From positions 152,098-216,097 of the forward strand of contig CAZELA010000003.1 in assembly GCA_964512835.1 (NCBI GenBank): a stretch of 64,000 nt of DNA. Reading direction: 5' to 3'. Positions 2,734 to 57,041 of the stretch are shown piece by piece. Below the pieces are notes generated by a model. That model was not told the DNA's origin. It did no database searches and saw only the letters and a list, made by a program, of their open reading frames with translations. Made by a program: the position numbers and the translations under genes. How positions within the stretch are numbered: position 1 is the first letter of the stretch; each line of letters opens with the position of its first letter. The stretch comes from an uncultured Candidatus Saccharibacteria bacterium. GTDB taxonomy: Bacteria > Patescibacteriota > Minisyncoccia > Phycocordibacterales > UBA2100.

Positions 2734-3531
2734 ATGAAACTGGCTACCTGGAACGTGAACGGTATACGTAACGTGCACAAAAAGGGGTTACTGAGCGTGC
2801 TGTTTGACCGAGAGGACCCGGACATTGTCGGGTTTCAGGAGACCAAAGCCGAACAACACCAGTCAGAGGTTGATCTCCCTGACTACGAGGAGTTTTGGAA
2901 TTCTTCCAAGGCTAAAAAAGGGTATTCCGGGACGGCGATATTCACCAAACCGACTCCCGAGGCCGTTCTCTATGACTTTCCGGAAGATATTGTCTCTAAA
3001 TACCGGCTCGAGGATAAGTATGGCGACCCCAACGGCGAGGGCCGTGTAATAGCGGCCGAATACGAGGATTTTCATTTTGTGACGGTCTATACCCCGAACT
3101 CCAAGGACGACCTGTCGCGCATTCCCCTGCGGCACAAGAACTGGGACCCTGCGTTTCTCGAGTACATGAAACGGCTGGAAGAAACAAAGCCCGTGATCTT
3201 TTGCGGCGATCTCAACGTGGCCCATACGCCGGATGACCTTGCGAACGCAAAACCGAATGAAGGCAAGAAGGGTTTCACCATGGAGGAGCGCTCGGGCATA
3301 GACAAGATGATTGATGCGGGATTTGTTGACGCGTTTCGATTACATACACAGGGTAAAGGACACTACACGTGGTGGAGTCACTTCGCGAACGCGCGCGAGC
3401 GGAATGTAGGGTGGCGCATCGACTACTTTTTTGTCAGCGCATCGCTCGCACCGCTTGTTACACGAGTAAAGATCCATGCCGACATCATGGGATCTGACCA
3501 CTGTCCGGTGACGCTGGAGCTAGATTTATAG
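2734..3531 (+). CDS. xthA: exodeoxyribonuclease III (AP endonuclease)
   Basis: MKLATWNVNG, QETK, CGDLNVAH and SDHCPV motifs of the ExoIII/APE1 family. Confidence 0.9.
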   Translation: MKLATWNVNGIRNVHKKGLLSVLFDREDPDIVGFQETKAEQHQSEVDLPDYEEFWNSSKAKKGYSGTAIFTKPTPEAVLYDFPEDIVSKYRLEDKYGDPNGEGRVIAAEYEDFHFVTVYTPNSKDDLSRIPLRHKNWDPAFLEYMKRLEETKPVIFCGDLNVAHTPDDLANAKPNEGKKGFTMEERSGIDKMIDAGFVDAFRLHTQGKGHYTWWSHFANARERNVGWRIDYFFVSASLAPLVTRVKIHADIMGSDHCPVTLELDL

Positions 3532-3539
3532 GGACAGAA

Positions 3540-3960
3540 TAGAATCTGTGACCGATAGACGGAGCAAATGTCCGTTATCCACTTATCCCCATAAGTTATC
3601 CACAGTACTGTCCTTTACGACTTCCTAAAGGACAGTATTATTACCAACGGTGGTTCTTTAAGACTTCTCATTTGATTCTGAAAATAAATGAGATTCATAG
3701 GTACAAAGTACTCTCGCCTACAAAAATAAAGATGCCTCCGCATCTATTGGAGAAAAAGTACGTTTGTCCGAAGGATATCTCAAAGTTCTTTAAAAAGAAT
3801 GGAATGGGAGTCAAAAAAATGTCGCCAGACGGCGGCAATCCGACTAGAGAGAAACGGGTTGCTACGTCTGGCGATATCTTTTTTAAACTTCATATCCGAA
3901 GCGTAGCTTCGGGCATGAATGGAGTTTAAAAAAGATATGGCCGGAGCCGGGACCCAGTGC
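3540..3960. promoter_or_regulatory. AT-rich non-coding region with DnaA-box-like motifs
   Basis: Perfect TTATCCACA at 3596-3604 plus TTATCCACT; 36-bp element at 3570-3605 that recurs inverted at 7544-7577; 10-bp perfect hairpin at 3608-3635; strongly AT-rich relative to the ~58% GC background. Confidence 0.5.
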
Positions 3961-41478: not shown

Positions 41479-41940
41479 ATGCGACGACCTGTAAAAAATC
41501 GAAAACAGCCGGCTCCGGATGAAGTCTACGGATCTCTCAAGGTAGCCAAGCTCATCAACTACGTGATGGAGCGCGGAAAGAAGGACACTGCCCGCAAGAT
41601 CGTCTACAAGATGATGGACGAGCTCAAGAAGGACGGTGATCCGTTGGTCATCCTCGAAGAAGCGCTCGAAAACGCAGCTCCGACGGTAGAAGTGCGCTCC
41701 CGACGAGTCGGCGGTGCAAACTACCAGGTTCCGCGCGAAGTCCGACCGGAACGACGCCTCTCGCTCGGCCTCCGCTGGATCGTAGAAGCAGCAGAAGGAA
41801 CCAAGGGTAAGCCGATGAACGTTTCGCTCTTGAACGAAGTTCGTGCAGCTCACAAGGGTGAGGGCTCGGCAGTCACCAAGAAGGAAACGACTCACCGCAT
41901 GGCAGAAGCCAACAAGGCATTCGCGCACTTCGCGTGGTAG
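41479..41940 (+). CDS. rpsG: 30S ribosomal protein S7
   Basis: S7 family sequence immediately downstream of rpsL. Confidence 0.95.
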   Translation: MRRPVKNRKQPAPDEVYGSLKVAKLINYVMERGKKDTARKIVYKMMDELKKDGDPLVILEEALENAAPTVEVRSRRVGGANYQVPREVRPERRLSLGLRWIVEAAEGTKGKPMNVSLLNEVRAAHKGEGSAVTKKETTHRMAEANKAFAHFAW

Positions 41941-42118
41941 TTTGCTCAGACACCACATCTCCTCGAGTACGAAATCCCCCTACTGGGGGATTTCTCCATT
42001 TTCGCGCCGTCGCGCTCAAAAGCCTCGATGAGATGTAGTGTCGCTCGCTTTTGCTGGCATATCCGTCATAGGTTGATATGTTGCAGATGGAAACAAAGAG
42101 AGAGAAAGGAGCCGCGTC

Positions 42119-42556
42119 ATGACCGCATGGCGATATGTACTGTTCGTGCTGTACCACAAGTATTTGGTGTTCAAGTTCGGCCTCCGGGTCGGTGGGATTC
42201 CACTGTGGCAATTGCTGATTCACGACCTGTCGAAGTTCGGCCCAAACGAGTTCGGTCCGTACCGGATGCGCAGCGTGACCGGTAAGGACACGCCTGCATA
42301 CCAGGCAGCATGGAAACATCATTGGAGCATCAATCCGCATCACTGGGAGTACTGGGTTCGCGACGGTGTAGCCACTCCGATGCCCGAAGTCTATGTGCGA
42401 GAAATGCTTGCCGACTGGCACGCAGCGAATCGCACCTACGACACCGAGCCGCTCCAGATCTGGCTCGACCGGAAATGGGGTCGTATGAATCTGCATGTGC
42501 AAACGGTCGAGATTTTGCGACCGCTTGCATGGAAAATGGGCCTCATCGTTCCGTGA
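42119..42556 (+). CDS. hypothetical protein
   Basis: AAGGAG RBS upstream; 145 aa with conserved-looking His/Trp-rich segments. Confidence 0.5.
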   Translation: MTAWRYVLFVLYHKYLVFKFGLRVGGIPLWQLLIHDLSKFGPNEFGPYRMRSVTGKDTPAYQAAWKHHWSINPHHWEYWVRDGVATPMPEVYVREMLADWHAANRTYDTEPLQIWLDRKWGRMNLHVQTVEILRPLAWKMGLIVP

Positions 42557-42698
42557 CCGCGTGGTCACTACCGCCTGTCTATGCAGGCGGTTTTTGTCAG
42601 GTTTTGAGCGCTGATTCGACCACGTCGCTCTGTTGCGTCAAAGGTAAATGTGTGTCATTATATTGGCAGGAGATTTCCAAAGAAAGGAGGTGATAACA

Positions 42699-42938
42699 AT
42701 GGAATTTCTCATTCTGATGGTGCCCATCGCACTGTTCTGCGGCTTCCTGGCTCTTGTGTTGTCATCGGACAACAGCGAAGAGCGTAAGCGGAAGCGGTAC
42801 GAACGGTCGAAGGAGGGATCATCGGGCGGCTCTGATGGGGGACCATACTGGTTCTCTGGCGGAGATAGTAGTTCCAGCTCAGGCGACTCATGTTCTTCCG
42901 GTGACGGAGGCGGAGGCGGCTGCGGCGGGGGCGACTAA
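42699..42938 (+). CDS. small membrane protein with Gly/Ser/Cys-rich tail
   Basis: GGAGG RBS 7 nt upstream of ATG; one TM helix, then SGGSDGG...GDGGGGGCGGGD; terminator at 42942-42975. Confidence 0.45.
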   Translation: MEFLILMVPIALFCGFLALVLSSDNSEERKRKRYERSKEGSSGGSDGGPYWFSGGDSSSSSGDSCSSGDGGGGGCGGGD

Positions 42939-43120
42939 ATAAAGCGGATCGGCTTATGAGCCGATTTTTTTAATTCTGGCTTCACTTATGGAGCGGTAGG
43001 CTTCGCTGCTTATCGATAGCTATTTTTGATATGAAAGGAATCGTTCTGTGGATTCTTGGTGTACCGCTCAGTCTCATCGTCATTTTGTACTTGCTGCACA
43101 TCCTCTAGTAGGATTGCCGC

Positions 43121-43786
43121 ATGAACGACGTGCGGATCGGCGGCGGATGGAAGGAAAAGCTGTCTCACGAATTCACGCTCGACTACTTCAAGAACCTCTC
43201 TTCGTTTGTGCGCGATGAGTATGCAAAGGGAACAGTATTTCCCAATCCGAAGCACATCTTCCGCGCATTCGATGAAACACCGTTCGATATGGTGAAGGTG
43301 GTGGTACTCGGACAAGATCCGTATCACGGTCCCGGACAGGCCAATGGACTGTGTTTTGCGGTGAATCAGGGTGTGCAAACACCGCCGTCGCTGCAGAACA
43401 TTTTTAAAGAATTAGAGAGCGATCTCGGTCACGCGGTGAATCGTGATGCCGACCTCGGGCGCTGGGCGCGGCAGGGAGTGCTCTTGTTGAACGCGGTGCT
43501 CACCGTACGAGCAGCGAGTGCCGCATCGCACCAAGGCAAAGGCTGGGAGGAATTCACGGATGCAGCGATCAAAAAACTCAACGATGAGCGCGAGGGCATC
43601 GTATTCATTTTGTGGGGAAATTATGCAAAGAAAAAAGGCGCGCACATTGATCGTGCGAAACACTGCGTGATCGAGAGTGCGCACCCGTCGCCGCTTTCCG
43701 CGCACAACGGATTCTTCGGTTCGAAACCGTTTTCAAAAGCGAACGCATATCTTATTGCGCGAGGTGGGACGCCGATTGACTGGTAG
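43121..43786 (+). CDS. ung: uracil-DNA glycosylase (family 1)
   Basis: GQDPYH and HPSPLS motifs. Confidence 0.9.
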   Translation: MNDVRIGGGWKEKLSHEFTLDYFKNLSSFVRDEYAKGTVFPNPKHIFRAFDETPFDMVKVVVLGQDPYHGPGQANGLCFAVNQGVQTPPSLQNIFKELESDLGHAVNRDADLGRWARQGVLLLNAVLTVRAASAASHQGKGWEEFTDAAIKKLNDEREGIVFILWGNYAKKKGAHIDRAKHCVIESAHPSPLSAHNGFFGSKPFSKANAYLIARGGTPIDW

Positions 43787-43843
43787 CTCAAAGAAAAAGG
43801 CCGCGCATTTTGCGCGGCCCGAGTTCCCACGCGACCGATCCCG

Positions 43844-44338
43844 TTAGGGGCAATCGCGGAAGAGTAGTTTGGAAGTTCCGAATGTCTTTTCGTAGAGGGT
43901 GAAGTTGTTCTTCACTGCCTCGTTGTATCGACCCGTCTGCTGCGAGACCTGTGTCCATGCCGGCGAGGCACGGATCGTGCGGTCGTCGACCGTTTTCGAG
44001 ATCGCACACTGGATCTCGACGAAGCGGTCGAACTGTTTTCGCGACGAGGCGAACGGTTCGGCAAGCGCAAAGTCACTCCTGAGCGAGTCGCCGATCTTGC
44101 GTGCTTCGGCGGCCAGGTCGCGGATGTTCTTCGCGGTCGTCGCGTCCTTGCGGACGTTCTCGAAGTAGTGGGTGACGGCCATATTGCGACCCTCGTACGC
44201 CCTGATTGCGTCGAGTGCGCGCGAGTATGCAAGTGCATCGGCCGGTTTCCCGAGCGAGAACACGCCGACGAAGAATGCCGTAGCGATCACGGCGATGCCT
44301 GCTGCCAAGGCAACAAACAGCTTCTTTTTGAAGGTCAT
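43844..44338 (-). CDS. hypothetical secreted/membrane-anchored protein
   Basis: AAGGAG RBS, N-terminal signal/TM segment; start refined to MTFKKK. Confidence 0.45.
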   Translation of the reverse strand: MTFKKKLFVALAAGIAVIATAFFVGVFSLGKPADALAYSRALDAIRAYEGRNMAVTHYFENVRKDATTAKNIRDLAAEARKIGDSLRSDFALAEPFASSRKQFDRFVEIQCAISKTVDDRTIRASPAWTQVSQQTGRYNEAVKNNFTLYEKTFGTSKLLFRDCP

Positions 44339-44490
44339 GGGGGAACTCCTTCTTGTTGACCGGGTATATTGTACAATAATTAAGTGAAGAGTCAAACTCG
44401 GTTTACGCACCCGTTCGGTGGCATTTTTTCGGGCCAGGCGTACCGTTATAGAGGGAATGAGCATTCGCTCACTCCACAGGGGAGGTTCTC

Positions 44491-44646
44491 ATGGTGAGGA
44501 TCAAAGACGAGTCGGGCTTCGCAACGAATGTCATATTGAGTTTGTTTGCGCTCGCGGTTGTGGCCGTCATGGGTCACGCACTGCTCTATGCAGGCGCGCA
44601 CAATATGAACATCGTTCCGACGGCACTCGCCTCGGCCGCGCGCTAG
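44491..44646 (+). CDS. small membrane peptide (51 aa)
   Basis: GGGGAGG RBS, one TM helix, followed by a terminator hairpin at 44670-44700. Confidence 0.35.
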   Translation: MVRIKDESGFATNVILSLFALAVVAVMGHALLYAGAHNMNIVPTALASAAR

Positions 44647-44780
44647 TGTCGCGCGTCCACGCACGAAAGACTGCAGCTCGCTGCAGTCTTTTGCTTGTGC
44701 TGGCGCAATTCGGTGCGCAGTGTATCGTTTTTAACGGTAGAGGTGTCTCTGCCGACACATACATAACGAGGGAGTTTGAA

Positions 44781-44927
44781 ATGCTCAACTGGATCAGCGA
44801 GAACAAGCTGTTCGCGGCCGTCATCGCCATTGTGGTCGTCGTCGGCGTCTGGATGCTGGTGTCGCGCAACAAGCCGGCGGTCAAGAAGACCCATGTCCCG
44901 GCTATCGAGCGCGTCATCACCGTCTGA
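44781..44927 (+). CDS. small membrane peptide (48 aa)
   Basis: GAGGGAG RBS, TM helix AAVIAIVVVVGVWMLV. Confidence 0.35.
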   Translation: MLNWISENKLFAAVIAIVVVVGVWMLVSRNKPAVKKTHVPAIERVITV

Positions 44928-44952
44928 GCCGGCGTTCCCGAGGAGGGATCCG

Positions 44953-45057
44953 ATGAGTACTCACCAGAAGCCATTCGTGCTGCTGAATTGGCACGGGTGG
45001 GCGATATTCGTGATCGTTGTCGGCGGCACGTTCGCGTACAAGTGGCTGACAAAGTAG
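44953..45057 (+). CDS. small membrane peptide (34 aa)
   Basis: AGGAGGG RBS, TM helix WAIFVIVVGGTFAY; terminator at 45063-45100. Confidence 0.35.
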   Translation: MSTHQKPFVLLNWHGWAIFVIVVGGTFAYKWLTK

Positions 45058-45200
45058 TCAGAAAGGGGACCGCGGTCAGAGCGCGGTCCTTTTCTATATA
45101 TTGAAAGCGGCATCCTTTGCTTTTTGGGGTGAATTCGCCTATATTACGGGAACTTGGCTCCGCCACCGGCGGATTCTTTTTTAGAAAAATTACTTGTTAT

Positions 45201-47342
45201 ATGTCACGAGATTACCCATTGGAAAAAGTTCGAAACTTCGGAATCGTCGCACACGTCGATGCGGGCAAAACGACCACATCCGAGCGCATCCTCTACTACA
45301 CCGGGGAGAGCCACAAGATCGGCGAAGTGCACGACGGCAACACGGTTACCGACTGGATGGAACAGGAGCGAGAACGCGGCATCACGATCACCGCGGCGGC
45401 GATCACCTGCTTCTGGAACCCGTCGTACATGGGAACCGATCTCTCGCAGAAAGTTCGGTTCAACGTCATCGACACGCCGGGACACATCGACTTCACCTCT
45501 GAAGTAAAGCGATCCATGCGCGTACTCGACGGTGCCGTCGTCGTTTTCGACGGCGTTGCAGGCGTTGAGCCGCAGTCGGAAACCAACTGGCGTTACGCAG
45601 AAGAGGCCGAGGTGCCCCGTATCTGCTACATCAACAAGCTCGACCGAACCGGTGCGTCGTTTGAAAAGTCATACGCGTCCATCCTCGATCGTCTCTCCAC
45701 CAAAGCAGTCCGTCTCCAGATTCCGGTCGGAGCAGAAGCCGACTTCGAAGCCGTCATCGATGTGCTCGAAATGAAAATGTTCAAGTTCGAAGGCGAAATG
45801 GGTAAGAATGTTTCCGCTCACGAGATCCCGGAGGCGTACATGGCAGATGCCAAGAAGTACCACGACGAGATCGTTGAGCGCATCGTCGAGACCGACGACG
45901 TGCTCATGAACGACTTCCTCGAGGGCAAGGTGCCGGAGCTCTCTGTTTTGAAGGCAACGCTTCGCAAGGCGGTGATCGCCAACAAGATCTTCCCGGTGCT
46001 CACCGGCTCGTCACTCAAGAACAAGGGTGTGCAGCGCGTGCTCGATGCGGTCGTCGACTACCTCCCGTCTCCGCTCGATCTTCCGCAGGCTCAGGGAACC
46101 AATCCTGACACCGGCGCCGAAGAAACCCGTCCTGCTGACGACAGCGCACCGTTTGCTGCGCTTGTCTTCAAGCTTCAGACCGACCCGTTCGTGGGTAACC
46201 TCGCGTTCTTCCGTGTTTACTCGGGTTCGATCTCTGCCGGTGACACTGTCTACAATTCCGCAAACAACAAGAAAGAGCGCTTGGGCCGCATCGTGCGCCT
46301 CCAGGCAGACAAGCGCGAAGAAGTAAAAACCGTCTTCGCCGGCGAAATCGCCGCGGCCGTCGGTCTCAAGGAGATTAAGATCGGTAACACGCTCTGCACC
46401 TCGGACAACCCGATCATTCTCGAATCGATCGTGTTCCCGGAACCGGTCGTATCGATGCGAATCGAACCGGACACTAAGGCAGACCAGGAAAAGATGGGTA
46501 TCGCGCTCTCGAAGCTCTCCGACGAAGACCCGACCTTCCGCGTGAAGTCGGACCCGGAGACGATGGAAACAATCATCTCGGGCATGGGCGAATTGCACCT
46601 CGACATCATCGTCGATCGTATGAAGCGCGAATTTGCAGTAAACGCAAAGACCGGCAAGCCGCAGGTCGCGTACCGCGAAACGATCCAGGGAACATCGGAC
46701 GTGGAATACAAGCACATCAAGCAGACGGGCGGCCGCGGTCAGTACGGTCACGTAAAGATCAAAATGGCGCCGCTTGCTCCGCTCGAAGAGGGTGCAAAGA
46801 TCAAGAACAATGTCGATCGCGAAGACCACTTCGAATTCATCAACAACATCAAGGGAGGTGTTATTCCGCAGGAATACATTCCGGCTGTGAAGAAGGGTCT
46901 CAAAGAAGGCCTGGATCGCGGCGTGCTCGCGGGCTTCCCGGTTGTCGATGTGTCAGTCGACCTCTACGACGGCAGCTACCACGATGTCGACTCATCCGAA
47001 ATCGCGTTCAAGCTCGCAGCGCTCAACGCATTCCAGGAGGCGTGCCAGAAGGCAAAGCCGGTCATCCTCGAGCCGATCATGAAGCTCGAAGTCGTTGTCC
47101 CGGAAAAGTTCATGGGCGACGTAACCGGTATGATCAACTCGAAGCGCGGTTCCATCGAAGCGATGGGCGAGCGCGGTCAGGCGAAGGTCATCACCTCGAA
47201 AGTGCCTCTCTCGGAACTCTTCGGATTCACGACGCAGCTTCGCTCCCTTACGGAAGGCCGCGGTGTGCCGAACCTCGAGTTCTCGCACTACTCCGTCGTG
47301 CCGCGAAATGTGCAGGACGAGATCATCGCATCCCGAAAGTAA
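45201..47342 (+). CDS. fusA: elongation factor G
   Basis: GTPase G1 AHVDAGKTT and full EF-G domain organisation; start refined to MSRDYP. Confidence 0.95.
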   Translation: MSRDYPLEKVRNFGIVAHVDAGKTTTSERILYYTGESHKIGEVHDGNTVTDWMEQERERGITITAAAITCFWNPSYMGTDLSQKVRFNVIDTPGHIDFTSEVKRSMRVLDGAVVVFDGVAGVEPQSETNWRYAEEAEVPRICYINKLDRTGASFEKSYASILDRLSTKAVRLQIPVGAEADFEAVIDVLEMKMFKFEGEMGKNVSAHEIPEAYMADAKKYHDEIVERIVETDDVLMNDFLEGKVPELSVLKATLRKAVIANKIFPVLTGSSLKNKGVQRVLDAVVDYLPSPLDLPQAQGTNPDTGAEETRPADDSAPFAALVFKLQTDPFVGNLAFFRVYSGSISAGDTVYNSANNKKERLGRIVRLQADKREEVKTVFAGEIAAAVGLKEIKIGNTLCTSDNPIILESIVFPEPVVSMRIEPDTKADQEKMGIALSKLSDEDPTFRVKSDPETMETIISGMGELHLDIIVDRMKREFAVNAKTGKPQVAYRETIQGTSDVEYKHIKQTGGRGQYGHVKIKMAPLAPLEEGAKIKNNVDREDHFEFINNIKGGVIPQEYIPAVKKGLKEGLDRGVLAGFPVVDVSVDLYDGSYHDVDSSEIAFKLAALNAFQEACQKAKPVILEPIMKLEVVVPEKFMGDVTGMINSKRGSIEAMGERGQAKVITSKVPLSELFGFTTQLRSLTEGRGVPNLEFSHYSVVPRNVQDEIIASRK

Positions 47343-47415
47343 TTTCAAGGGATTCTTTACACAAAACCCCGCGCATGCGGGGTTTTGTCGTGTATGGGTG
47401 TGCGACAATATTCCC

Positions 47416-48318
47416 ATGAACCCAAAAACGCGTATTGCCGCCCTTGTTTGTGCGATTATCGCGCTCGCGGCCCCGCTCTCGGCTGCCGCATCGACATGTC
47501 CCGCGCTCTATCGATCGCTGTCGCGTAATGCCGAAGGGAGCGATGTGCGCGAACTCCAGCAGTTCCTGGCAGACTGGGGAGTGCTTGAGCGCGCCTTTGT
47601 GATCGGCATATTCGGACTCAAGACCGAGCGAGCCGTCCAGGCATTTCAGGTACAACAGGGCATCGTGAGCGTGGGAACTCCGGCGACGACCGGCTTTGGT
47701 GGGGTCGGGGGCAAGACTCGCGCCCGTATCGCGGCAGTCTGCGCAGCGGGTCCGTCGCAAAACGGGGGAAATAGTCAGCAAACAAGCCGTCCGTCGAGTG
47801 TAAATATCGTTATTCCGACAGGGACGATGCCGGTGCAGACCGGCCCGATCGTAACGGCCAAAACGGCGAAAGCACCCACGATCGAACTCGGGACCGTCGC
47901 CGTCGATAAGGTTATGGTCAATTTCTACGGGATTCCGCCGCTGAGCATTATGTTCATGATTGACCCGGTGACCGGAAAGCGAGTCGAAATGGGAGGCTAC
48001 AGTCCGCTGGATATCGGAGGCAGCGGCTACGTTACGTACCCGATGCTCGGTGAATTTGCGGGAAATACCTATGCGTTTGTCATACAAGCCAGTTCAACTA
48101 AGCAGAGCTGGGCCACATCGACATCATTTACCGTACCAAAGCCGACCGCTCAGGACGAGGTCGGCGTGTTTACGCTCTACGACGGACAGGTTTTGATCTA
48201 CTCAACCACAAACGTAACCAAAAGCAGCGCGACAGCTCGATGCAAGTCCGAAAAGTCTTCGTACCCCGCACGTAACACACAGTGCACGTTCAACGGCTAC
48301 ACGATATTCGTGCAGTAG
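47416..48318 (+). CDS. secreted protein with peptidoglycan-binding-like domain
   Basis: Signal peptide then a PG_binding_1-like segment (GSDVRELQQFLADWG...GLKTERAVQAFQ). Confidence 0.55.
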   Translation: MNPKTRIAALVCAIIALAAPLSAAASTCPALYRSLSRNAEGSDVRELQQFLADWGVLERAFVIGIFGLKTERAVQAFQVQQGIVSVGTPATTGFGGVGGKTRARIAAVCAAGPSQNGGNSQQTSRPSSVNIVIPTGTMPVQTGPIVTAKTAKAPTIELGTVAVDKVMVNFYGIPPLSIMFMIDPVTGKRVEMGGYSPLDIGGSGYVTYPMLGEFAGNTYAFVIQASSTKQSWATSTSFTVPKPTAQDEVGVFTLYDGQVLIYSTTNVTKSSATARCKSEKSSYPARNTQCTFNGYTIFVQ

Positions 48319-48437
48319 AGTTATCCACATCAATCGGTCGCGGGCACGTTGCATAGCGATTGTTCGTGCAATACTACGCATACCACTTTCTCTCTAGTGG
48401 TGCGGTTTTCCTTTTATAGGGTAAGCACATTAGAGAG

Positions 48438-50843
48438 ATGTCTAAAAAAATTGTTTCGGGTGCGGTTGCACTTTTCATGATGGTCGTCCCGATGAGCGCA
48501 GCCGCGCTCTCGATGCCGGATCAGTTCATGCTGCCGCAATTGCCGCAGAATCCGACCGTACAGGATCTGCAGGCGTATGTAATCCGACTCACGTCTCTCG
48601 TCACGGAGCTCATTGCCCGTAACGCGCAGACTCCGATACCGCCGGTCATGACGGATCGGATCAGCTGCCCGGTCTACATGCCGGCACTCTGCGCCTCGAA
48701 CGAGCATCTTGTGGGCGGTACCTACCTGCAGAACGGCTGTCAAGGTGCGCCGCGCTGCGTGCCGAATTCAGACACTGCCGCTACGGTCGCGCTCAGTGTT
48801 TCACCCGCCTTAGGAACCGCACCGCTCAGTGTTCTTGCAACCGTCAGTAATTTGGGAAGCTCGAACAAATATTCTATCGACTTCGGTGATGGTGCGGGCG
48901 GTGTGATCTGTAACCAGGAGTCCGGCGGCGTTTCAAACTGCGGAAGTTCATGGAGTGGCTCGTATGTGTATCAGTTTCCGGGAACGTATGTTGTCAAAGT
49001 TTCGCAAGTGCCCGGTCCGACTGACGGCAATTGTGTCGGGACGGATTGTTGGGTGCGCGCGAGCGCGCGCGTAGTAGTGACCGGCGGCTCGACGCCCACG
49101 AGCGGATCGTCGCGCGTTACGTTCGGGTCAATATCCGGTCGCACTGTCTCGTACTCATTCGCAAGTCTGCCGGCCAATACACAGCTCATATTTGTAAATC
49201 AAACCAACGGAGACCGTATCTACTCCGTTTCTGCAATCGCATCGGGAAGCGGCGAAGGTGCGATGACTCTGCCCGACAATGCGACCGCCGGGGCGTATGT
49301 TGTGCGCGCGCAGAGTTACGGAACCGGCGTGTATGTAGCACAGACGGTACCGTTCACGTTGTCGGGCACGACGGAGGGCTGCGTAGCACCGACAATCACC
49401 ATGCCTGCTGCCGGATACTCACTCGCAATCAGCATGGCCGGTCAGGGACAGCAGATCGCTGCAACAGGCAACCCGCAGCTTTCGGTAACGTCGCTCCCGT
49501 GGGCAACGCTCGCAGGCTCAGTGCTTACATTCAACTCACTTCCGGTTGCCGGGACCTATCCCATCGTGATCACGGCAACGAATCCCTGTGGAACTGCCAC
49601 GCGCACGTTTAATGTAATCGTGCCGCAGGCGGTGAGCGTATGTCCCGTCTATACGATCCCGCTCTGCCCCGAAGGACAGTCGATGGTGCACGAACTCACC
49701 ACGCGAGATGCAAACAACTGCGAAGTTCCTCACTGGCACTGCACAATAAGCCCGATCGCAAAGGGTACATGTACCTACTCACAAGGCAGCTCGAGGTTCG
49801 GAGATAAGGCCACGGTTGCAAAAGCGCCGGTTTCGATCCAAATCGAAGGCGGTCAGGCTGCATGCAGCGCGTGGTGCTTGTCGCAGGGTGTAATGGCGTA
49901 TTCGTATTACACCTGTGCCTACAATGGGTCCACGGTCTCGATGTCGGACAGCGCATCAAATGTTTCGAACATCGCATACGAAGGTGAACAGCAGAATACG
50001 GGCACCGTTGCGGGCGTATCGGTCTCGCTTGATCAGGAGACGTTCACTGCCGATCAGCGAGCTCAGGTGGCAGGTGCGCTTGAATCGCTCGAAGGAATCG
50101 TGAAATGGATACTCGCATACTTCCGACCGGCAGCTTCGGGTGATGTGGCGGTCACGTCTACGACCACCGCTCCGGTACCAGATGTTCCGAAAGAGAATCG
50201 GCCGATGACGGCGCCGTCCCTCCCGGTGCAGCAGGCTCCGACACCCACGACAACGTCGTCGGGCGCGGGCGCACAAGTGGTCGGCTCGTCGAGCACCAAC
50301 ACGAACGTGCCGGCAAAGGGGACACTGCGCGCCTCGTTCAAAGGAGTCGCATTACCCGATGTGCCGAACGTAACAAAACGTATTGCCGAGGCGCTGTGTC
50401 GCGCGGAGGCCGTGTGCACATGGAACTACGAGCCGATCACCGCGATCCCGACGTTTGGTCAGCCCGGGGACCCTACGATCACGCTTTCTAAACCGGTTGC
50501 CGGTTCGAACGAAAAAGTGGAGTTGGGCGGCACCTATACATTCGTGCTCAAAGACACATCGAACACCTCCGGCGCTGTACCGGCCGGCATGTATCGTGTG
50601 TATCTTGCAAAGGTAACGACGCGCAACGGACCGGATTTGATTTATCAGGGCGAGATCACGAGTGCAAAGCGAAACGCTGCGGGTGACATCGAACTGACGT
50701 GGTCCACACATACTCAGCGACAGACCGCATACTCGCTTGTATCGGATCTGATTCCTGCCGGTTTGTATTACGTGGGTGCGGTCAATATTACGAACGGCCT
50801 CAAGGGTTCGTCGTCGGGTTCACTCACACTGCTTGTTCAATAA
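48438..50843 (+). CDS. large secreted protein with PKD/Ig-like repeats and Cys-rich segments
   Basis: Signal peptide, PKD-like LSVSPALGTAPLSV, repeated CPVY-x-LC Cys-rich modules, and Ser/Thr/Gly-rich beta-type composition. Confidence 0.55.
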   Translation: MSKKIVSGAVALFMMVVPMSAAALSMPDQFMLPQLPQNPTVQDLQAYVIRLTSLVTELIARNAQTPIPPVMTDRISCPVYMPALCASNEHLVGGTYLQNGCQGAPRCVPNSDTAATVALSVSPALGTAPLSVLATVSNLGSSNKYSIDFGDGAGGVICNQESGGVSNCGSSWSGSYVYQFPGTYVVKVSQVPGPTDGNCVGTDCWVRASARVVVTGGSTPTSGSSRVTFGSISGRTVSYSFASLPANTQLIFVNQTNGDRIYSVSAIASGSGEGAMTLPDNATAGAYVVRAQSYGTGVYVAQTVPFTLSGTTEGCVAPTITMPAAGYSLAISMAGQGQQIAATGNPQLSVTSLPWATLAGSVLTFNSLPVAGTYPIVITATNPCGTATRTFNVIVPQAVSVCPVYTIPLCPEGQSMVHELTTRDANNCEVPHWHCTISPIAKGTCTYSQGSSRFGDKATVAKAPVSIQIEGGQAACSAWCLSQGVMAYSYYTCAYNGSTVSMSDSASNVSNIAYEGEQQNTGTVAGVSVSLDQETFTADQRAQVAGALESLEGIVKWILAYFRPAASGDVAVTSTTTAPVPDVPKENRPMTAPSLPVQQAPTPTTTSSGAGAQVVGSSSTNTNVPAKGTLRASFKGVALPDVPNVTKRIAEALCRAEAVCTWNYEPITAIPTFGQPGDPTITLSKPVAGSNEKVELGGTYTFVLKDTSNTSGAVPAGMYRVYLAKVTTRNGPDLIYQGEITSAKRNAAGDIELTWSTHTQRQTAYSLVSDLIPAGLYYVGAVNITNGLKGSSSGSLTLLVQ

Positions 50844-50945
50844 CAGGAGCGAACACGCATCAAAGGCCGCCTCATGGGCGGCTTTTGCATTGAGATGTCA
50901 ACAGCCACCGCTTAGATATTCATATGAAGGCTTTACAATAGAGAG

Positions 50946-51437
50946 GTGAATCACTCTATCGGCCGTCAGGTGGTCGTACTCATTGTTCTTGTCCTCCTTT
51001 TGATCGCTGTAGGAATTTTTTCATCCCTCACCAACGGTATTCATCCGCGCGGATTTTCTGATGCAGATACTGCGCAACAAGTACCGCCCCCACCGCCCCG
51101 AACCGAACATATGGAAAAGGTATTGAGCGAGAGCAGGGGATTTTCGCAGTTCGTTTCGTATACCGATAACGGCTTTGAACCTGCCGACGTTACGGTGAGC
51201 AAGGGCGAGACCGTGCGGTTCACCAACAACTCTGCGCACGATCTATGGATCATGGCGAGCGGAGGCGACGGCGGCGTGTACCCGGCAACAGGAAACAACT
51301 GCGGTCAGAGCGATTTTGATACATGCATCGCGCTCCCGCCGAACGAGATCTGGGAGTTCACGTTTACTGCGGCGGGTACGTGGGTGTATCGCAACAATGT
51401 CGAAAAAGAACACGTCGGTGTCATCCGCGTGAAATAA
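50946..51437 (+). CDS. putative cupredoxin-like domain protein (membrane-anchored)
   Basis: N-terminal TM helix, PPPPP linker, then TVRFTNNSAHDLWI...WEFTF...GTWVY...HVGVIRV resembling a cupredoxin fold; GTG start, so start uncertain. Confidence 0.4.
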   Translation: MNHSIGRQVVVLIVLVLLLIAVGIFSSLTNGIHPRGFSDADTAQQVPPPPPRTEHMEKVLSESRGFSQFVSYTDNGFEPADVTVSKGETVRFTNNSAHDLWIMASGGDGGVYPATGNNCGQSDFDTCIALPPNEIWEFTFTAAGTWVYRNNVEKEHVGVIRVK

Positions 51438-51439
51438 CT

Positions 51440-54073
51440 ATGCATCATCACTCAAAACGGGAGCGATACACGGCATGGATCGCGCGGGCCATCATTGCCA
51501 CGTCGATCTTTGTAACGATGCTCTACGTGTTCGACGGCAAGCTCGATCTGTTCACGAGCGCGCCAAATCCGGAATTTGCCGATGCCACACCGTCGGGCAT
51601 GTTGGTTGTACCCGCCTCCGGCGCGAGTCAGAGCTCATATACGGGCAGCTACACGGCTACGTACACGGGCACCTACACGGGCTCGTATGTGCCGCCCACA
51701 CCGACAGGCCTTACGCTCACCTGCGATGCCGCTGGTACCACGGGCACGATCGCGTGGACGAGCGCACCGGGAGCAACCAGCTACTTGGTGCGCGCCGACG
51801 ACGGAGCTTCGCCGTGGACGCCGTCGCGCTGCGACGGTACCGTGAACGACACGGGTGCGGGCGACTACTGCTGGCCGGCTGCCGCAACAAATCCAAAAAC
51901 ATTTACCACACAGGCCGGGCACAGCTACACGGTGTGGGTGCACTCGAACAATGCTGCCGGATACAACACGACTCCGGCACAGGGAACACTCACCTGCTCG
52001 GCAATGCCGTCGTGCACCGTGAACATCTCGCCGAATCCGCTTGCACGCGGCGGCAGCGCAACAGTCACGTGGTCTTCGCAGAACGCATCGAGCATGACGC
52101 TTGCAACCATCGGGCCGGTGGCGACGGCCGGCTCTTCGAGCGTGTCTCCGACGGTTACTACCAGTTACGGCGGCACGGTGTCCAACACCACTCAAAACAT
52201 TTCATACGGGGCTAATGTTCGTGTCGTGCTTGGCTCAGGATCATCATGGTCAGTTCCTGCGGACTGGAACAACTCGAACAACGTGATCGAGTGCATCGGC
52301 GGCGGTGCAGGCGGCAGCCGTGGTGCAGCAGGCGGAGGCGGCGCGTACTCGCGAGCCACCAATGCTGTGCTTCCGATGGGCCGCACTGTTGCGTACAACA
52401 TCGGCACAGCGGGTGTCGGATGGGGTTACGGAGGTCCGACGAACGGCGGCGCAACGTACTTTGGTGCATATTACTGCTACGCGCAGGGTGGTTACGTGGG
52501 CGGCGATCTCTCGTTGACGGGTGGCACAGGCGGACAGTCGTCCGGATATGGCAATGTGAATTATGTCGGCGGAAACGGCGGCGGCGCATCAAACGTCTGG
52601 GACGGTATCCGCACATTCAACGGCGGTGGCGGCGGTGGTGCAGGAGGACCGAACGGTAACGGCTACAGCGGTGCATCCGGTGTCGCGGCGAGCGTCGGCG
52701 GTAATGGCGGATACGGTGGTGCCGGTTACGGTGGCGGTGGCGGTGGCGGCGGAGGATTTACCTACTACTGGGCTTACACATACGGTGGCACCGGCGGAAC
52801 CGCGTATAACGGTGCTGAATGGTCGTCTGCCGGATCCGGCGGCGGAGGCGGCGGAGGTGGTGGCGGTTACTACGGCGGCGCAGGCGGTCACGGCGGCTAC
52901 TACGGCGGTGGTGGAGGCGGTGGCGCGCAGGGCTATGCAGTCGACGGCTACGGAGGCTACGGCCGACAGGGTGTTGTGGTAATCACGTACCAGCCGATCA
53001 TCTACACTCCGCAAAACAATACGGCTACATGCCCCGCAACACTTACGGTACAAACTCCGACTGCCGCACTCACACTTGCGGGCGGTGTCTCATCACAAAC
53101 GGTGAACGTGGGTCAGCAGTCGACCTGGACGTGGTCGTCAACATTCGGCAATACCTACACAACAATCGTGACGCTTGATCAGGCCGATGCGTGCGGTAAC
53201 GGCGTTGGACCCATCACATGGCCGTACGGTACGAGCGCGAGCGGCAACTACACTGCGACGTGGCAGGCCTGCACCGCAGGACGCACGTACAACTATAGTT
53301 ATCGCGTCACGAATTCTGCGGGCTACATTGCAACCGCACCGACCGCGTCGGTCACCGTTCGACCGCTCCCGTCGTGCACGCTCACACCGACCCCGGCAAC
53401 CATCGTTCGCGGTGGTAGTGCTGCACTCGCCTGGACCTCGGCAAACAGCACATCAGGCTCGATTGCGCCGGGAGGCACGAACATGTCGCCGCTTGCAAGC
53501 GGACAGGTATCTGTTGCCCCGACCGTTACGACCACGTACACAGGATCGGTGACGGGTGCAGGTGGTGCAGGCAGCTGCCAGACCACGGTGAACGTAACGT
53601 GTGCACCGATCTATCAGTGCTCCGGCCAGCAGATCACGTATACCGACAGTAACTGCAATACAACGAACCTCAATGGCGGCGTTGCCTGCGCAGCACCGTC
53701 GTACTGCCAGGCAGGTCAGGCGGTCTGTATAAACCCGCCGCCGTCATTCACTGCCGGCACCACTGCAGGCGGCACGCCGACCACCGGTGACTTGGAAGCG
53801 AATCCGCAGCTCGTGCGAAAGGGAACATCGGCAAAGCTGTACTGGAACGTATCGAATGTGGCGAGCTGCACCGTAACGGGTAACAACGGCGAAACGCTGG
53901 CTTCGGGCTGCACCGGCTCGGTCTGCACCTCGGGTAGCGCAGGTCGCACGACTGCGGCGATCAACTCGAGCGTGATTTACTCGCTCCGCTGCAATGCGCT
54001 CTCGGGCGTGACGCCGTCGTCGTTCAATCACACGGTAACGGTGCTGCCGTCGCCGGAATACGAAGAGAAATAA
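51440..54073 (+). CDS. giant secreted glycine-rich protein (877 aa)
   Basis: Signal anchor, Ig/fibronectin-like Thr/Ser-rich domains, and a ~300-aa central region of GGxGG/GYGG repeats ending GYGRQGVVVITYQP; alternative-frame ORFs across it are high-GC artefacts. Confidence 0.55.
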   Translation: MHHHSKRERYTAWIARAIIATSIFVTMLYVFDGKLDLFTSAPNPEFADATPSGMLVVPASGASQSSYTGSYTATYTGTYTGSYVPPTPTGLTLTCDAAGTTGTIAWTSAPGATSYLVRADDGASPWTPSRCDGTVNDTGAGDYCWPAAATNPKTFTTQAGHSYTVWVHSNNAAGYNTTPAQGTLTCSAMPSCTVNISPNPLARGGSATVTWSSQNASSMTLATIGPVATAGSSSVSPTVTTSYGGTVSNTTQNISYGANVRVVLGSGSSWSVPADWNNSNNVIECIGGGAGGSRGAAGGGGAYSRATNAVLPMGRTVAYNIGTAGVGWGYGGPTNGGATYFGAYYCYAQGGYVGGDLSLTGGTGGQSSGYGNVNYVGGNGGGASNVWDGIRTFNGGGGGGAGGPNGNGYSGASGVAASVGGNGGYGGAGYGGGGGGGGGFTYYWAYTYGGTGGTAYNGAEWSSAGSGGGGGGGGGGYYGGAGGHGGYYGGGGGGGAQGYAVDGYGGYGRQGVVVITYQPIIYTPQNNTATCPATLTVQTPTAALTLAGGVSSQTVNVGQQSTWTWSSTFGNTYTTIVTLDQADACGNGVGPITWPYGTSASGNYTATWQACTAGRTYNYSYRVTNSAGYIATAPTASVTVRPLPSCTLTPTPATIVRGGSAALAWTSANSTSGSIAPGGTNMSPLASGQVSVAPTVTTTYTGSVTGAGGAGSCQTTVNVTCAPIYQCSGQQITYTDSNCNTTNLNGGVACAAPSYCQAGQAVCINPPPSFTAGTTAGGTPTTGDLEANPQLVRKGTSAKLYWNVSNVASCTVTGNNGETLASGCTGSVCTSGSAGRTTAAINSSVIYSLRCNALSGVTPSSFNHTVTVLPSPEYEEK

Positions 54074-54321
54074 TCCCCAGACTATCCACAAAAAGCGCCT
54101 CAAACAGGCGCTTTTTGCGTATTTGACCAGACACCTCGTTCTGTTATTATCACTGCACGCACGCTCTGTGCGTATTTCTTTGCCCCACTATTTGCGTGCG
54201 GATTAGCGACCCGCGTGACGCGCAGTAGGGGAAGGTAGGGAAACACCGGAGCACTCAAAAGCGTTGGCACATGGTTCGCCTAAAAAACGAGCCGATTATT
54301 ATTTAGCTGTATAAAAATAAT

Positions 54322-55521
<1,200 letters not shown>

Positions 55522-55555: not shown

Positions 55556-55586
55556 GAAAACCCCGGCCCAAAGCCGGGGTTTTCTA
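55556..55586. terminator. bidirectional terminator shared by tuf and the reverse transcriptase gene
   Basis: AAAACCCCGGCC-CAAA-GCCGGGGTTTTCT. Confidence 0.7.
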
Positions 55587-57041
55587 GTTGTTCTTAAATG
55601 CTACTTTGCGCGATTTACCGCGAATCTTCTCTCTGAGTTTTCGGGCATTTTTTACCGTTTTTATCTGCTCTTTAACCTCTGGGGCACTCAATTTTGACGC
55701 AACCACTCGTGAGTAGGCTAGGAAATTTTTCTTAGCGACACCGTACTTTGTATGTAAGTACTTTTTCGGCGCACCACTGCGCTTTTTCCTTGCAGCATTC
55801 TTCACTGATTTCTTCACCGCCTTATTCATCCTTCTCTGAAACTTCGCAATTGCGGCGTGACGTAGATAAACCTTCTGCCCGTCGGTCTGGATGCCAAGGT
55901 ATTGAACCGTTGCCTTCTTCATTGTTTCGGGATTTAGAATAGCCAAGCGCTCTTCAGTTCCGATGCAGTCGCGTCTTTCTGTTTTTTCCTTTTTTATAAC
56001 CAAAGCCTGCTCCTTTATCGCCTCGTATACGAAGTTCACAATTTGTGCAGCGTTCTGCGGCGAACACACAATCAGGATGTCGTCCGAGTATCGCCGATAG
56101 AGTCCATTTATCTTTCTCACGGCGGTTGCTACGGCGGCATCAAAGTCGAGCATGTACATGTTGGCCAATACACAACTAATAGGCGACCCCTGAGGAATTC
56201 CTTTGCTTTCCTTGTGAATCTCCTGTAAATGCTTTGAAATCACTTCGCGTTTGTATTCGGGGGCTGTAAATATTCGTGACCGACGTTTTTTCATGGCCTC
56301 ATCGGCGAACTTACGAATTCGTCCTTTTCGGACAAATGTAAAATTTGTGACCGCTCTAAAAACCTTGTAGTGGTCTTCAGGTAGTCGTTCATACCCCATT
56401 ATCTGACTCCATTTTGATTTAAGTTTACTGTGATCAATCTCCTCGAAGAATTTTGAGACATCTATCGCCAGAACACTACACGGTGCGTGAGCATCAATGA
56501 ACGCGAAAACTTCTCCTGCGAAATCAGCGTTACTTTTTCCTCTACCCGTCACAGGGCTCTTGATGCTTCTGTAAGCAATGACAGCATCACTCAGGTTCAT
56601 TTCGGAAAGTATCTTTTCGTAGCGTTCTGAAAGTTGCGCCGCGTACCATGAAAACACAAGCGCATCCTTGTGCGACGAAAAATCAATGGGTCTCTTTTTT
56701 ACAAAAATCTCACGTTTGCGCGCACCGGACTTCCTATTTTTTGGACGTCTGTAGCGACGGTCTCGTGTATCGATACGAATAAACGGGTAGAAGGAGTGAC
56801 GGGATACCGAATCCGGTGACAACATAGATTTCGTAATGTCTTCCTTCAGTCGAGATATCCGACTATCAAAATGCAAATATGTCCGCTTCGGTGGACGGTC
56901 TTGCCCGTCCCCGTTTAGTTTTTTTGATTCATTTACAAACCAACTGCTCCACCGGTCATTTTCCATATTCAAAGTAGACCCAACACCCCCTGGGTTCCTG
57001 GTACCTCGGGTTTTATCCCGTTGGCAGGGGTGTGGGCGCAA
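55584..57041 (-). CDS. free-standing reverse transcriptase (RNA-directed DNA polymerase), unclassified family
   Basis: RT motifs: LAIDVSKFFEEIDH (motif 2), GIPQGSPISCVLANMYM (motif 4, QGxxxSP), YRRYSDDILIVC (motif 5, YxDD), QYLGIQTDG (motif 7); highly basic C-terminal tail; start codon uncertain (first Met of the ORF given). Confidence 0.85.
   Translation of the reverse strand: MRPHPCQRDKTRGTRNPGGVGSTLNMENDRWSSWFVNESKKLNGDGQDRPPKRTYLHFDSRISRLKEDITKSMLSPDSVSRHSFYPFIRIDTRDRRYRRPKNRKSGARKREIFVKKRPIDFSSHKDALVFSWYAAQLSERYEKILSEMNLSDAVIAYRSIKSPVTGRGKSNADFAGEVFAFIDAHAPCSVLAIDVSKFFEEIDHSKLKSKWSQIMGYERLPEDHYKVFRAVTNFTFVRKGRIRKFADEAMKKRRSRIFTAPEYKREVISKHLQEIHKESKGIPQGSPISCVLANMYMLDFDAAVATAVRKINGLYRRYSDDILIVCSPQNAAQIVNFVYEAIKEQALVIKKEKTERRDCIGTEERLAILNPETMKKATVQYLGIQTDGQKVYLRHAAIAKFQRRMNKAVKKSVKNAARKKRSGAPKKYLHTKYGVAKKNFLAYSRVVASKLSAPEVKEQIKTVKNARKLREKIRGKSRKVAFKNN

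Follow-up and report, generated by a model that had tools for sequence, protein, structure and literature searches.

YohP, AcrZ, CydX and MgtS of E. coli are small single-pass membrane proteins, and the toxins of type I toxin-antitoxin (TA) systems (Hok, TisB, Fst and the Ibs/Ldr classes) are small hydrophobic peptides from intergenic space. Short open reading frames (ORFs) that could encode peptides of either kind were studied here in 64,000 nucleotides (nt) of contig CAZELA010000003.1 (the whole stretch is called the window below), where they lie inside the str operon, between rpsG (ribosomal protein S7) and fusA (elongation factor G, EF-G). Multigene insertions that separate translation-machinery operons have been described in Gammaproteobacteria (Brandis, Cao & Hughes 2019; PMC6735719), and in the cases set out there conserved rpoBC-str-S10-spc genes are likewise parted by accessory genes in particular lineages. 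The insertions in those cases lie between operons, whereas the gaps described here lie inside str (rpsG|fusA and fusA|tuf), in a lineage of the candidate phyla radiation (CPR) in which fusA appears to have its own promoter.

The reading favoured here, and held with moderate confidence, is that the rpsG-fusA interval marks a break of str, old and specific to its clade, in a Paceibacteria lineage (Patescibacteria/CPR) and is now a small accessory region of independently transcribed mini-units. Transcription of rpsL-rpsG would end at a strong terminator, and fusA would restart from its own conserved promoter, whose -35 element lies in the T-tract of the upstream terminator; a 5' hairpin and then an AU-rich leader come after the promoter. 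The units between would be a gene for a DUF5662 protein, p79, p25 with ung, the divergent sec164, p51, and p48 with p34, each with its own start signals and, save for p48, its own terminator. DUF5662, p25-ung, sec164 and p51 would have been inherited vertically, recurring in the same interval of related genomes, while p79, p48 and p34 would be species-level additions with fast turnover (p34 apparently already inactivated in sister strains). Turnover would be concentrated at the fusA-proximal edge, where other strains carry extra cargo. Sequence comparison establishes the reality of genes, their synteny, the selection on them and the presence of terminator and promoter motifs; from these we infer that the genes are transcribed and translated, where in the membrane the peptides lie, how p25 and ung are coupled, and any function that the peptides have.

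Age of the break between rpsG and fusA

Relatives were gathered by searches with fusA, ung, DUF5662 and p51 and are referred to by locus number. EF-G of the window was 94.7% identical to that of L174/L175 ('Candidatus Pacebacteria' KBD06) and L181, 88% to that of L006 (a contig of a metagenome-assembled genome, MAG), and 70-74% to those of Kaiserbacteria MAGs. In the window, rpsG, which closes the upstream half of str (41479-41940, + strand; Pfam PF00177, 2.9e-49), is separated by 3260 nt from fusA (45201-47342, + strand, ATG at 45201; Pfam GTP_EFTU, EFG_III, EFG_IV and EFG_C). Wherever a recovered relative had a fusA of 83% identity or more and both genes on the contig (L093, L095, L174, L177 and L181), a gap of 1.3-4 kb with ung and/or DUF5662 inside it was present. 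The ung gene lay between rpsG and fusA in L092, L093, L095, L174 and L181, among others, and just upstream of fusA in L006, L094, L096, L097 and L153.

The gaps draw on a recurring pool of genes (DUF5662, p25-ung, sec164 and p51) together with lineage-specific ones. L174 has, after rpsG, a minus-strand gene for 242 amino acids (aa), DUF5662 (86%), a minus-strand glyoxalase, a CHAP-like gene, p25 (80%), ung (80.5%, 12 nt after p25) and a minus-strand sec164 (67%) before fusA. The order in L181 is rpsG, ung (78%), a p51-like gene (46%), a 54-aa transmembrane (TM) ORF and fusA; in L177, which has no ung, it is rpsG, genes for 180 and 181 aa, DUF5662 (58%), genes for 115 aa and a 71-aa TM protein, and fusA. 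L093 has ung alone between rpsG and fusA, L095 has a 111-aa gene, ung and a minus-strand 83-aa TM ORF in that place, and L179 carries sec164 (55%, - strand) next to p51 (69%).

The preliminary description, made from the window sequence alone, had spoken of a 3.3-kb insert splitting a normally contiguous operon. The features that it listed were all found in their places when the frames were re-checked, and rpsG and fusA are split as it said. The word insert does not hold: the same break occurs in every close relative that was recovered and so is not recent, being old and common to the whole clade, and the same genes sit in the same interval at 58-86% protein identity, which argues for vertical descent. 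Nor is the break confined to rpsG|fusA, since fusA and tuf are parted as well (see below). The locus thus departs from a canonical contiguous str operon in the gaps at both junctions, in the terminator after rpsG and in the promoter-like element before fusA.

In Paceibacteria at 63-74% EF-G identity rpsG and fusA were more than 250 nt apart in about half of the loci, the distance reaching 7.4 kb, and the cargo was unrelated; other phyla usually had fewer than 200 nt between the two genes. Three of the more distant Paceibacteria (L077 3072-8000, L022 931-8000 and L024 616-8000) carried 5-7 kb of unrelated cargo there, including, in L077, an ORF of the ORF6N/KilA-N-like kind and another, of 369 aa, that by its sequence resembles a reverse transcriptase and, in L024, a gene for 1029 aa.

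That the 3.3 kb are a recent mobile or phage-derived island (a group of morons) lodged between rpsG and fusA is improbable. The DUF5662 protein does match a phage family (phrog_20637, 4.8e-10), and 261 or more of its relatives lie on IMG/VR viral contigs, strain-level insertions and deletions occur at the fusA edge, a p79-p25-ung block is found between low-GC flanks in L090, and the reverse transcriptase beside tuf indicates that accessory genes do gather around this operon. Feature and family scans, however, found no tRNA, integrase, transposase, att-like repeat or flanking repeat at or near the interval, and its GC content (0.47-0.62) is like that of the flanks, with no compositional anomaly. 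The same genes also occupy the same interval down to 88% fusA identity, and L090 is probably an assembly chimera. The earlier suggestion of phage-derived small proteins likewise finds little to build on: no peptide had a PHROG match, p25 gave only tblastn matches of E >=5 in phages and no match in a pattern scan of viral contigs, and the p51 profile found no relative in viral contigs, so that DUF5662 alone belongs to a family common in phages.

Terminators and the region upstream of fusA

Terminator hairpins were folded and compared with shuffled controls (kcal/mol, z), against which they reached z of -3 to -4.7. The rpsG terminator (41971-41994, + strand) has a 10-bp stem and a T-rich tail (-19 kcal/mol, z -4.7). 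Further + strand hairpins follow DUF5662 (42570-42591, -18.4 kcal/mol), p79 (42946-42967, -11.8 kcal/mol), p51 (~44666-44697, -26.3 kcal/mol) and p34 (45063-45093, -21.1 kcal/mol), and a bidirectional one is common to ung and sec164 (43798-43820; -19.5 kcal/mol on the + strand, -22 on the - strand, z ~-4.2). The 25-nt spacer between p48 and p34 folds like its shuffles (z -0.7), so that these two genes share one terminator. Separate termination, as proposed in the preliminary description, thus stands for most units, with p48 as the exception.

A module upstream of fusA (45116-45200, + strand) is conserved in relatives. It consists of a promoter-like element (TTGCTT at 45117-45122, 17 nt, TATATT at 45140-45145), a 5' hairpin (TCCGCCACCGGCGGA, 45159-45173) with a T-run, and an AU-rich leader without a Shine-Dalgarno (SD) sequence. 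It was kept in the window, L006, L093, L095, L096, L097, L153, L174 and L181, the clade form being TTGCTT-17-TA(C/T)ATT followed within ~10 nt by a terminator-like CGCC-loop-GGCG hairpin and T-run. In most relatives the -35 element falls in the T-tract after the terminator hairpin of the upstream unit. The hairpin folds weakly (-10.2 kcal/mol, z -0.7) and, with the stem CGCC/GGCG in every copy, offers no evidence from covariation; it could act as a 5' stabiliser or as an attenuator. Conservation of the module across the clade points to a break that is ancient for the lineage and to two halves, the rpsG and the fusA half, that are most likely transcribed separately.

The p25 microprotein and its link to ung

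The shortest of the genes, p25 (43031-43108, + strand), has 25 codons and a hydrophobic product. Its copy in L090, part of a block with 91% identity to the window, has ten substitutions in 78 nt, none of which alters the peptide (10 synonymous / 0 nonsynonymous, P=1.3e-6). Other CPR homologues have 24-25 codons (L174, 80%; L091, 76%; L097 and L100, 64-65%), and three of the CPR copies have terminators of their own beside them.

ORFs of the same length were found by tblastn on plasmids and chromids of Sinorhizobium, Paracoccus, Rhizobium, Bradyrhizobium and other Alphaproteobacteria (84-95 records, best E 1e-3). These 24-25-aa ORFs, for example MKGIILWLMGVPLIVIILLYMFVF, are unannotated or annotated in over-extended form and stand as conserved islands in otherwise unalignable spacers. 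Examples are L172 (2501-2575; a pSymB-type replicon of S. meliloti, between exoT and exoH), L171 (2501-2578; Paracoccus) and L173; a Paracoccus form, MKGIIAWLLGVPIFVIILLYLTGIF, has both an SD sequence and a terminator. The copies of S. meliloti and S. americanum differ at 11 nt, with eight changes at third positions, one synonymous first-position change in a Leu codon and two conservative Ile/Val changes, and their flanks cannot be aligned. Among seven aligned sequences from CPR and Alphaproteobacteria nine positions are invariant (M1, G3, W7, G10, V11, P12, I16, L19 and Y20), giving the family pattern M-K/R-G-x-x-L-W-x-L-G-V-P-x-x-x-I-x-x-L-Y. A local hidden Markov model built for p25 matched only ORFs of this family among the ~26,800 ORFs of the fetched loci.

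The family was absent from Pfam, NCBIfam and the protein collection, as expected for an ORF of 25 codons, and no p25-like peptide was found in the supplements of the S. meliloti Ribo-seq paper. By its substitution pattern p25 is clearly a real gene, and on these alignments it is a member of an undescribed family of 24-25 aa that also occurs in Alphaproteobacteria. The neighbours of p25 differ between CPR and Alphaproteobacteria; its occurrence as a free-standing gene elsewhere argues that it encodes a protein and is not just a leader.

Strong ribosome binding sites had been ascribed to the small ORFs in general, which is wrong for p25, as it has no SD sequence. Leaderless translation was considered and set aside (there was no convincing conserved -10 box at the right distance). 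In the window, L090 and L174 the p25 stop codon (TAG) overlaps a weak SD sequence of ung (TAGGA), 12 nt before the ung ATG. The overlap suggests that p25 is probably co-transcribed with, and translationally coupled to, ung in this genome.

L090 (1-3039) holds the p79-p25-ung block at 1620-2781. The block has 52-58% GC; of its flanks, the one that carries RmuC has 36-43% GC and the other 33%. The contig is either an assembly chimera, which the low-GC flanks make the probable case, or a block transferred into a low-GC genome. It was not taken as a second genomic context for p79-p25-ung and was used solely for comparison, as a divergent version of the block.

p51, p48, p34 and p79

Whether the interval is rich in small membrane-protein ORFs was assessed by counting ATG-initiated ORFs of 22-90 aa that combine a hydrophobic segment with an SD sequence of 4 nt or more, against 300 dinucleotide shuffles. 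The 3.26 kb contained four such ORFs (shuffle mean 0.05; no shuffle had more than one). Raising the SD minimum to 5 nt left four such ORFs in the whole 64-kb window, three of them in this interval.

When 1.84 billion representatives were scanned exhaustively with HMMER, two homologues of p51 (44491-44646, + strand; 51 aa, single-TM) came up, namely a 50-aa protein (P0058, 69%, 6e-14) and a 53-aa protein (P0060, 46%, 8e-4), which share GHAxxYxGxHNxxxVP with it. P0060 is encoded between ung and fusA in L181, and P0058 adjoins the sec164 homologue in L179, in comparison with which p51 has an excess of synonymous changes (P=1.5e-5). The upstream region (44440-44490) holds a -10-like TATAGA (44447-44452), a hairpin (GAGCATTCGCTC, 44459-44470) and an SD sequence (GGGGAGG, 44479-44485; also listed as GGAGGT). 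In a three-lineage alignment of this region GGCGTAYCGTTATA is invariant, and the stem of the hairpin persists although its sequence differs (GAGC/GCTC, CGGGC/GCCCG and GGGC/GCCC). On this evidence p51 is a real gene.

The 48-aa single-TM product of p48 (44781-44927, + strand) has a basic C-terminal tail. In comparison with sister strains the gene shows 7 synonymous and 3 nonsynonymous changes, with a ratio of nonsynonymous to synonymous rates (dN/dS) of 0.12 (P=0.003), and is probably a real gene. A 54-aa TM ORF in L181 agrees with p48 in position and architecture; it was rejected as a homologue for want of BLASTP similarity. Of the near-consensus SD sequences reported earlier for all three tandem peptides, those of p51 and p34 (AGGAGG) were borne out, while p48 has only a weak GGAG.

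The 34-codon TM ORF p34 (44953-45057, + strand) is a doubtful or dispensable gene. In the sister strains L086-L089 its SD sequence is destroyed (GAGGAGGGA to AAAAGAAA) and its ATG is ACG. These strains are ~97% identical to the window in neighbouring genes and 89-91% across the p48-p34 segment. L097 has two small TM ORFs directly upstream of fusA (3237-3544; 44 aa, and 33 aa with the SD sequence AAGGAGG), which are positional analogues of p48 and p34 without detectable similarity to them.

As a gene p79 (42699-42938, + strand; SD sequence AAGGAGG) is unproven. The predicted protein has an N-terminal TM helix, a KR-rich linker and a Gly/Ser/Cys-rich tail that ends in GDGGGGGCGGGD. The only other copy is that of L090 (94% aa identity), from which it differs by 5 synonymous and 5 nonsynonymous changes (P=0.07), a pattern that is not significantly coding-like.

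According to the preliminary description, the small ORFs would be chance frames in a spacer if no relative conserved them. This outcome is refuted for p25 and p51, and p48 is under purifying selection within the species. That some of the others, above all p34 and p79, are chance or decaying frames is unlikely. Their lack of homologues fits such an origin, as do the loss of both the SD sequence and the start codon of p34 in near-identical strains and the even substitutions and low-complexity, variable tail of p79. Yet both have near-consensus SD sequences at the right spacing and dedicated terminators, the p79 terminator stem is kept in L090 through a compensatory change, and p34 has a dN/dS of 0.21-0.26 with a synonymous excess at P ~0.02; ORFs with an SD sequence and a TM segment, moreover, essentially never arise in shuffled sequence.

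Membrane peptides, toxins and bacteriocins

Searches of Pfam, NCBIfam, PHROGs and PADLOC with the peptides gave noise-level matches only, and Rfam searches (permissive for the locus, at gathering thresholds for the whole window) gave nothing relevant. A word-indexed protein search (p79, and a concatenate of p51, p48, p34 and p25) found no match, a result that is uninformative for tiny TM peptides, as it also missed the queries' own clusters, which an exact look-up located in the protein collection.

One candidate for p79 was PF25184 ('YxzE-like putative bacteriocin'), with E=0.001 and 20.4 bits over profile positions 1-65 of 65. The layout of an N-terminal hydrophobic segment and a Gly-rich tail is common to both, and the match, though weak, is full-length; p79 would then be a secreted or anchored bacteriocin-like peptide. 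This is very improbable. The score is half of the gathering threshold (40), so that p79 is not filed as a member, and the match is probably driven by composition (TM segment and Gly-rich tail). No ABC transporter, immunity or processing gene lies nearby. YxzE itself is a context-based BAGEL prediction whose activity was never tested (PMC1538908).

A type I toxin, depolarising the membrane and checked by a cis-encoded antisense RNA, had been proposed for the tiny peptides, and was weighed for p51, p48, p34 and p25. With 25-51 aa, a single hydrophobic helix and charged tails they fit the profile: all four are below 60 aa, with hydrophobicity maxima of 1.85-3.0 (Kyte-Doolittle, 17-residue window), and they share with such toxins an intergenic location. 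In the window and L179 a small hairpin can enclose the start codon of p51 (z only -1.3 to -2.1). The proposal is nevertheless quite improbable. No antisense promoter was detected, the only good sigma-70-like site in the 8.5 kb scanned being that of sec164; the consensus scan is a coarse one, and promoters in the CPR may be of another form. No PADLOC or other defence or TA model was matched by any peptide, and no Rfam antitoxin RNA was found at threshold. The ORFs are single-copy, without the multi-copy or patchy distribution of type I toxins, their strong SD sequences are exposed, and, as is usual for genes, they are passed on syntenically and evolve under purifying selection; p25, moreover, is co-linear with ung, 12 nt upstream.

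In their length, single hydrophobic helix and character as conserved, often unannotated, very short ORFs the peptides resemble the small single-pass membrane proteins named at the outset. They differ from these in having no similarity to any described family (Pfam, NCBIfam) and no identifiable partner complex or regulatory context. Most likely the small ORFs encode single-pass microproteins of the envelope membrane, not toxins. The earlier term membrane-targeting modulators is possible as a default guess.

DUF5662, ung and sec164

The DUF5662 gene (42119-42556, + strand; 145 aa) has the SD sequence AAGGAG 7 nt upstream. Its product is a clear member of PF18907 (106.5 bits against a cut-off of 27, 1.3e-30, residues 4-135), a family without an assigned function, and has a dN/dS of 0.09 relative to L174, a sign of strong constraint. 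Invariant residues are H13, H35-D36, K39, E44, H68, H74-H75, E95 and D99. The AlphaFold2 (AF2) model is all-alpha (mean predicted local distance difference test score, pLDDT, 96.9) and had no significant neighbour in Foldseek, the best being HD-fold proteins (E 0.43, TM-score 0.38); PDB sequence searches with this protein and with the sec164 product found nothing above noise. That the DUF5662 protein is an HD-like metal-dependent hydrolase is a fair guess, no more. The viral relatives (loci L182-L261 among them) include phage genomes of 100-190 kb. The present comparison adds to PF18907 the H/HD/H/HH/E/D pattern, a confident all-alpha model without a solved neighbour, and the abundance on phage contigs.

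The product of ung (43121-43786, + strand) is a full-length family-1 uracil-DNA glycosylase (NCBIfam equivalogs up to 315 bits, cut-off 162) with the catalytic motifs GQDPYHG and HPSPLS in its translation and a dN/dS of 0.07. Only its position, inside str throughout the clade, is unusual for the family.

The 164-aa product of sec164 (43844-44338, - strand) is predicted to be exported or membrane-anchored (N-terminal KKK and hydrophobic anchor). The gene has a sigma-70-like promoter (TTGACT-16-TACAAT, 44395-44368, - strand), which was identified by the promoter scan. Two Cys residues are conserved, dN/dS is 0.14-0.31, and the L174 homologue has the same position and strand after ung. No family for the protein was found in Pfam, NCBIfam, PHROGs or PDB; by these comparisons it is an orphan among exported proteins, conserved within the clade.

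Strain alleles upstream of fusA

Three alleles were found among near-identical strains just upstream of the fusA promoter (window 45095-45130). The window allele is empty, with nothing between the p34 terminator and the promoter. That of L086-L089 has an extra 968 nt (L086 359-1326) with a basic 290-aa ORF matching no family, and L001, otherwise 99.9% identical, departs at 45130 and has an acidic 141-aa minus-strand ORF (L001 3650-4219).

Units in relatives are bounded by a hairpin followed by TTTGCTTTT(T), with four copies in L177 and two each in L181, L174 and L086. As a genome-wide terminator tail TTTGCTTTT was rejected for the window, which has one exact copy and in which matches with one mismatch were not above chance. 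That these boundaries supply microhomology for the gain and loss of genes is speculative. A bolder account joins such a mechanism to the peptide families. In it the gap would be an integrase-free cassette hotspot, where terminator-bounded mini-genes are gained and lost at a hairpin-TTTGCTTTT(T) junction that doubles as the fusA -35 element; p25 would be an unannotated cross-phylum membrane microprotein of 25 aa with a conserved core role, and p51 a second conserved CPR microprotein. Taken as a whole this is regarded as unlikely.

Genes around fusA and tuf

The gap between fusA and tuf (54322-55521) is ~7 kb (47343-54321) and holds genes for three large exported proteins, at 47413-48318 (PG_binding_1), 48438-50843 and 51323-54073 (the latter two without a Pfam family). 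L174 and L177 also carry exported or PG-binding proteins after fusA. Directly downstream of tuf lies a gene for a 484-aa reverse transcriptase (55584-57041, - strand; PADLOC Drt2, E=4.7e-127, 423 bits), by this match a DRT2-type defence reverse transcriptase adjoining the str operon of a CPR genome.

Assessment and implications

Several points weigh against the favoured reading of an old break filled with small, independently transcribed genes. Collecting relatives through fusA, ung, DUF5662 and p51 biases towards finding these genes together, and all relatives are MAG or metagenome contigs, of which L090 at least looks chimeric. The promoters are consensus-like matches, and the promoter scanner itself did not call those of fusA or p51. 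The alphaproteobacterial likeness of p25 rests on tblastn matches of E >=1e-3 with a hydrophobic query of 25 aa, so that convergence of short TM sequences is possible, and p25 lacks an SD sequence. No homologue of p48 was detected outside the species, and none of p34 was found. For p79, the single further copy (L090) is the one whose changes do not favour coding.

The most fitting description of the region is an ordinary accessory patch peculiar to the clade, neither a toxin battery nor a phage remnant. It does not change current understanding and is less a surprise than a useful correction of annotation and a source of candidates. Evolutionary comparison gives good support to two families of small proteins among them, those of p25 and p51. 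With fewer than 30 codons and no SD sequence, p25 escapes gene callers and family databases altogether, and it is unannotated in Sinorhizobium and Paracoccus, where genetics is feasible. The DUF5662 protein is flagged as confidently folded, abundant on phage contigs and without a significant match among solved structures. For the biology of the CPR, the locus suggests that a highly conserved bacterial operon can be permanently broken and rewired, and that the gap may then gather small accessory genes.

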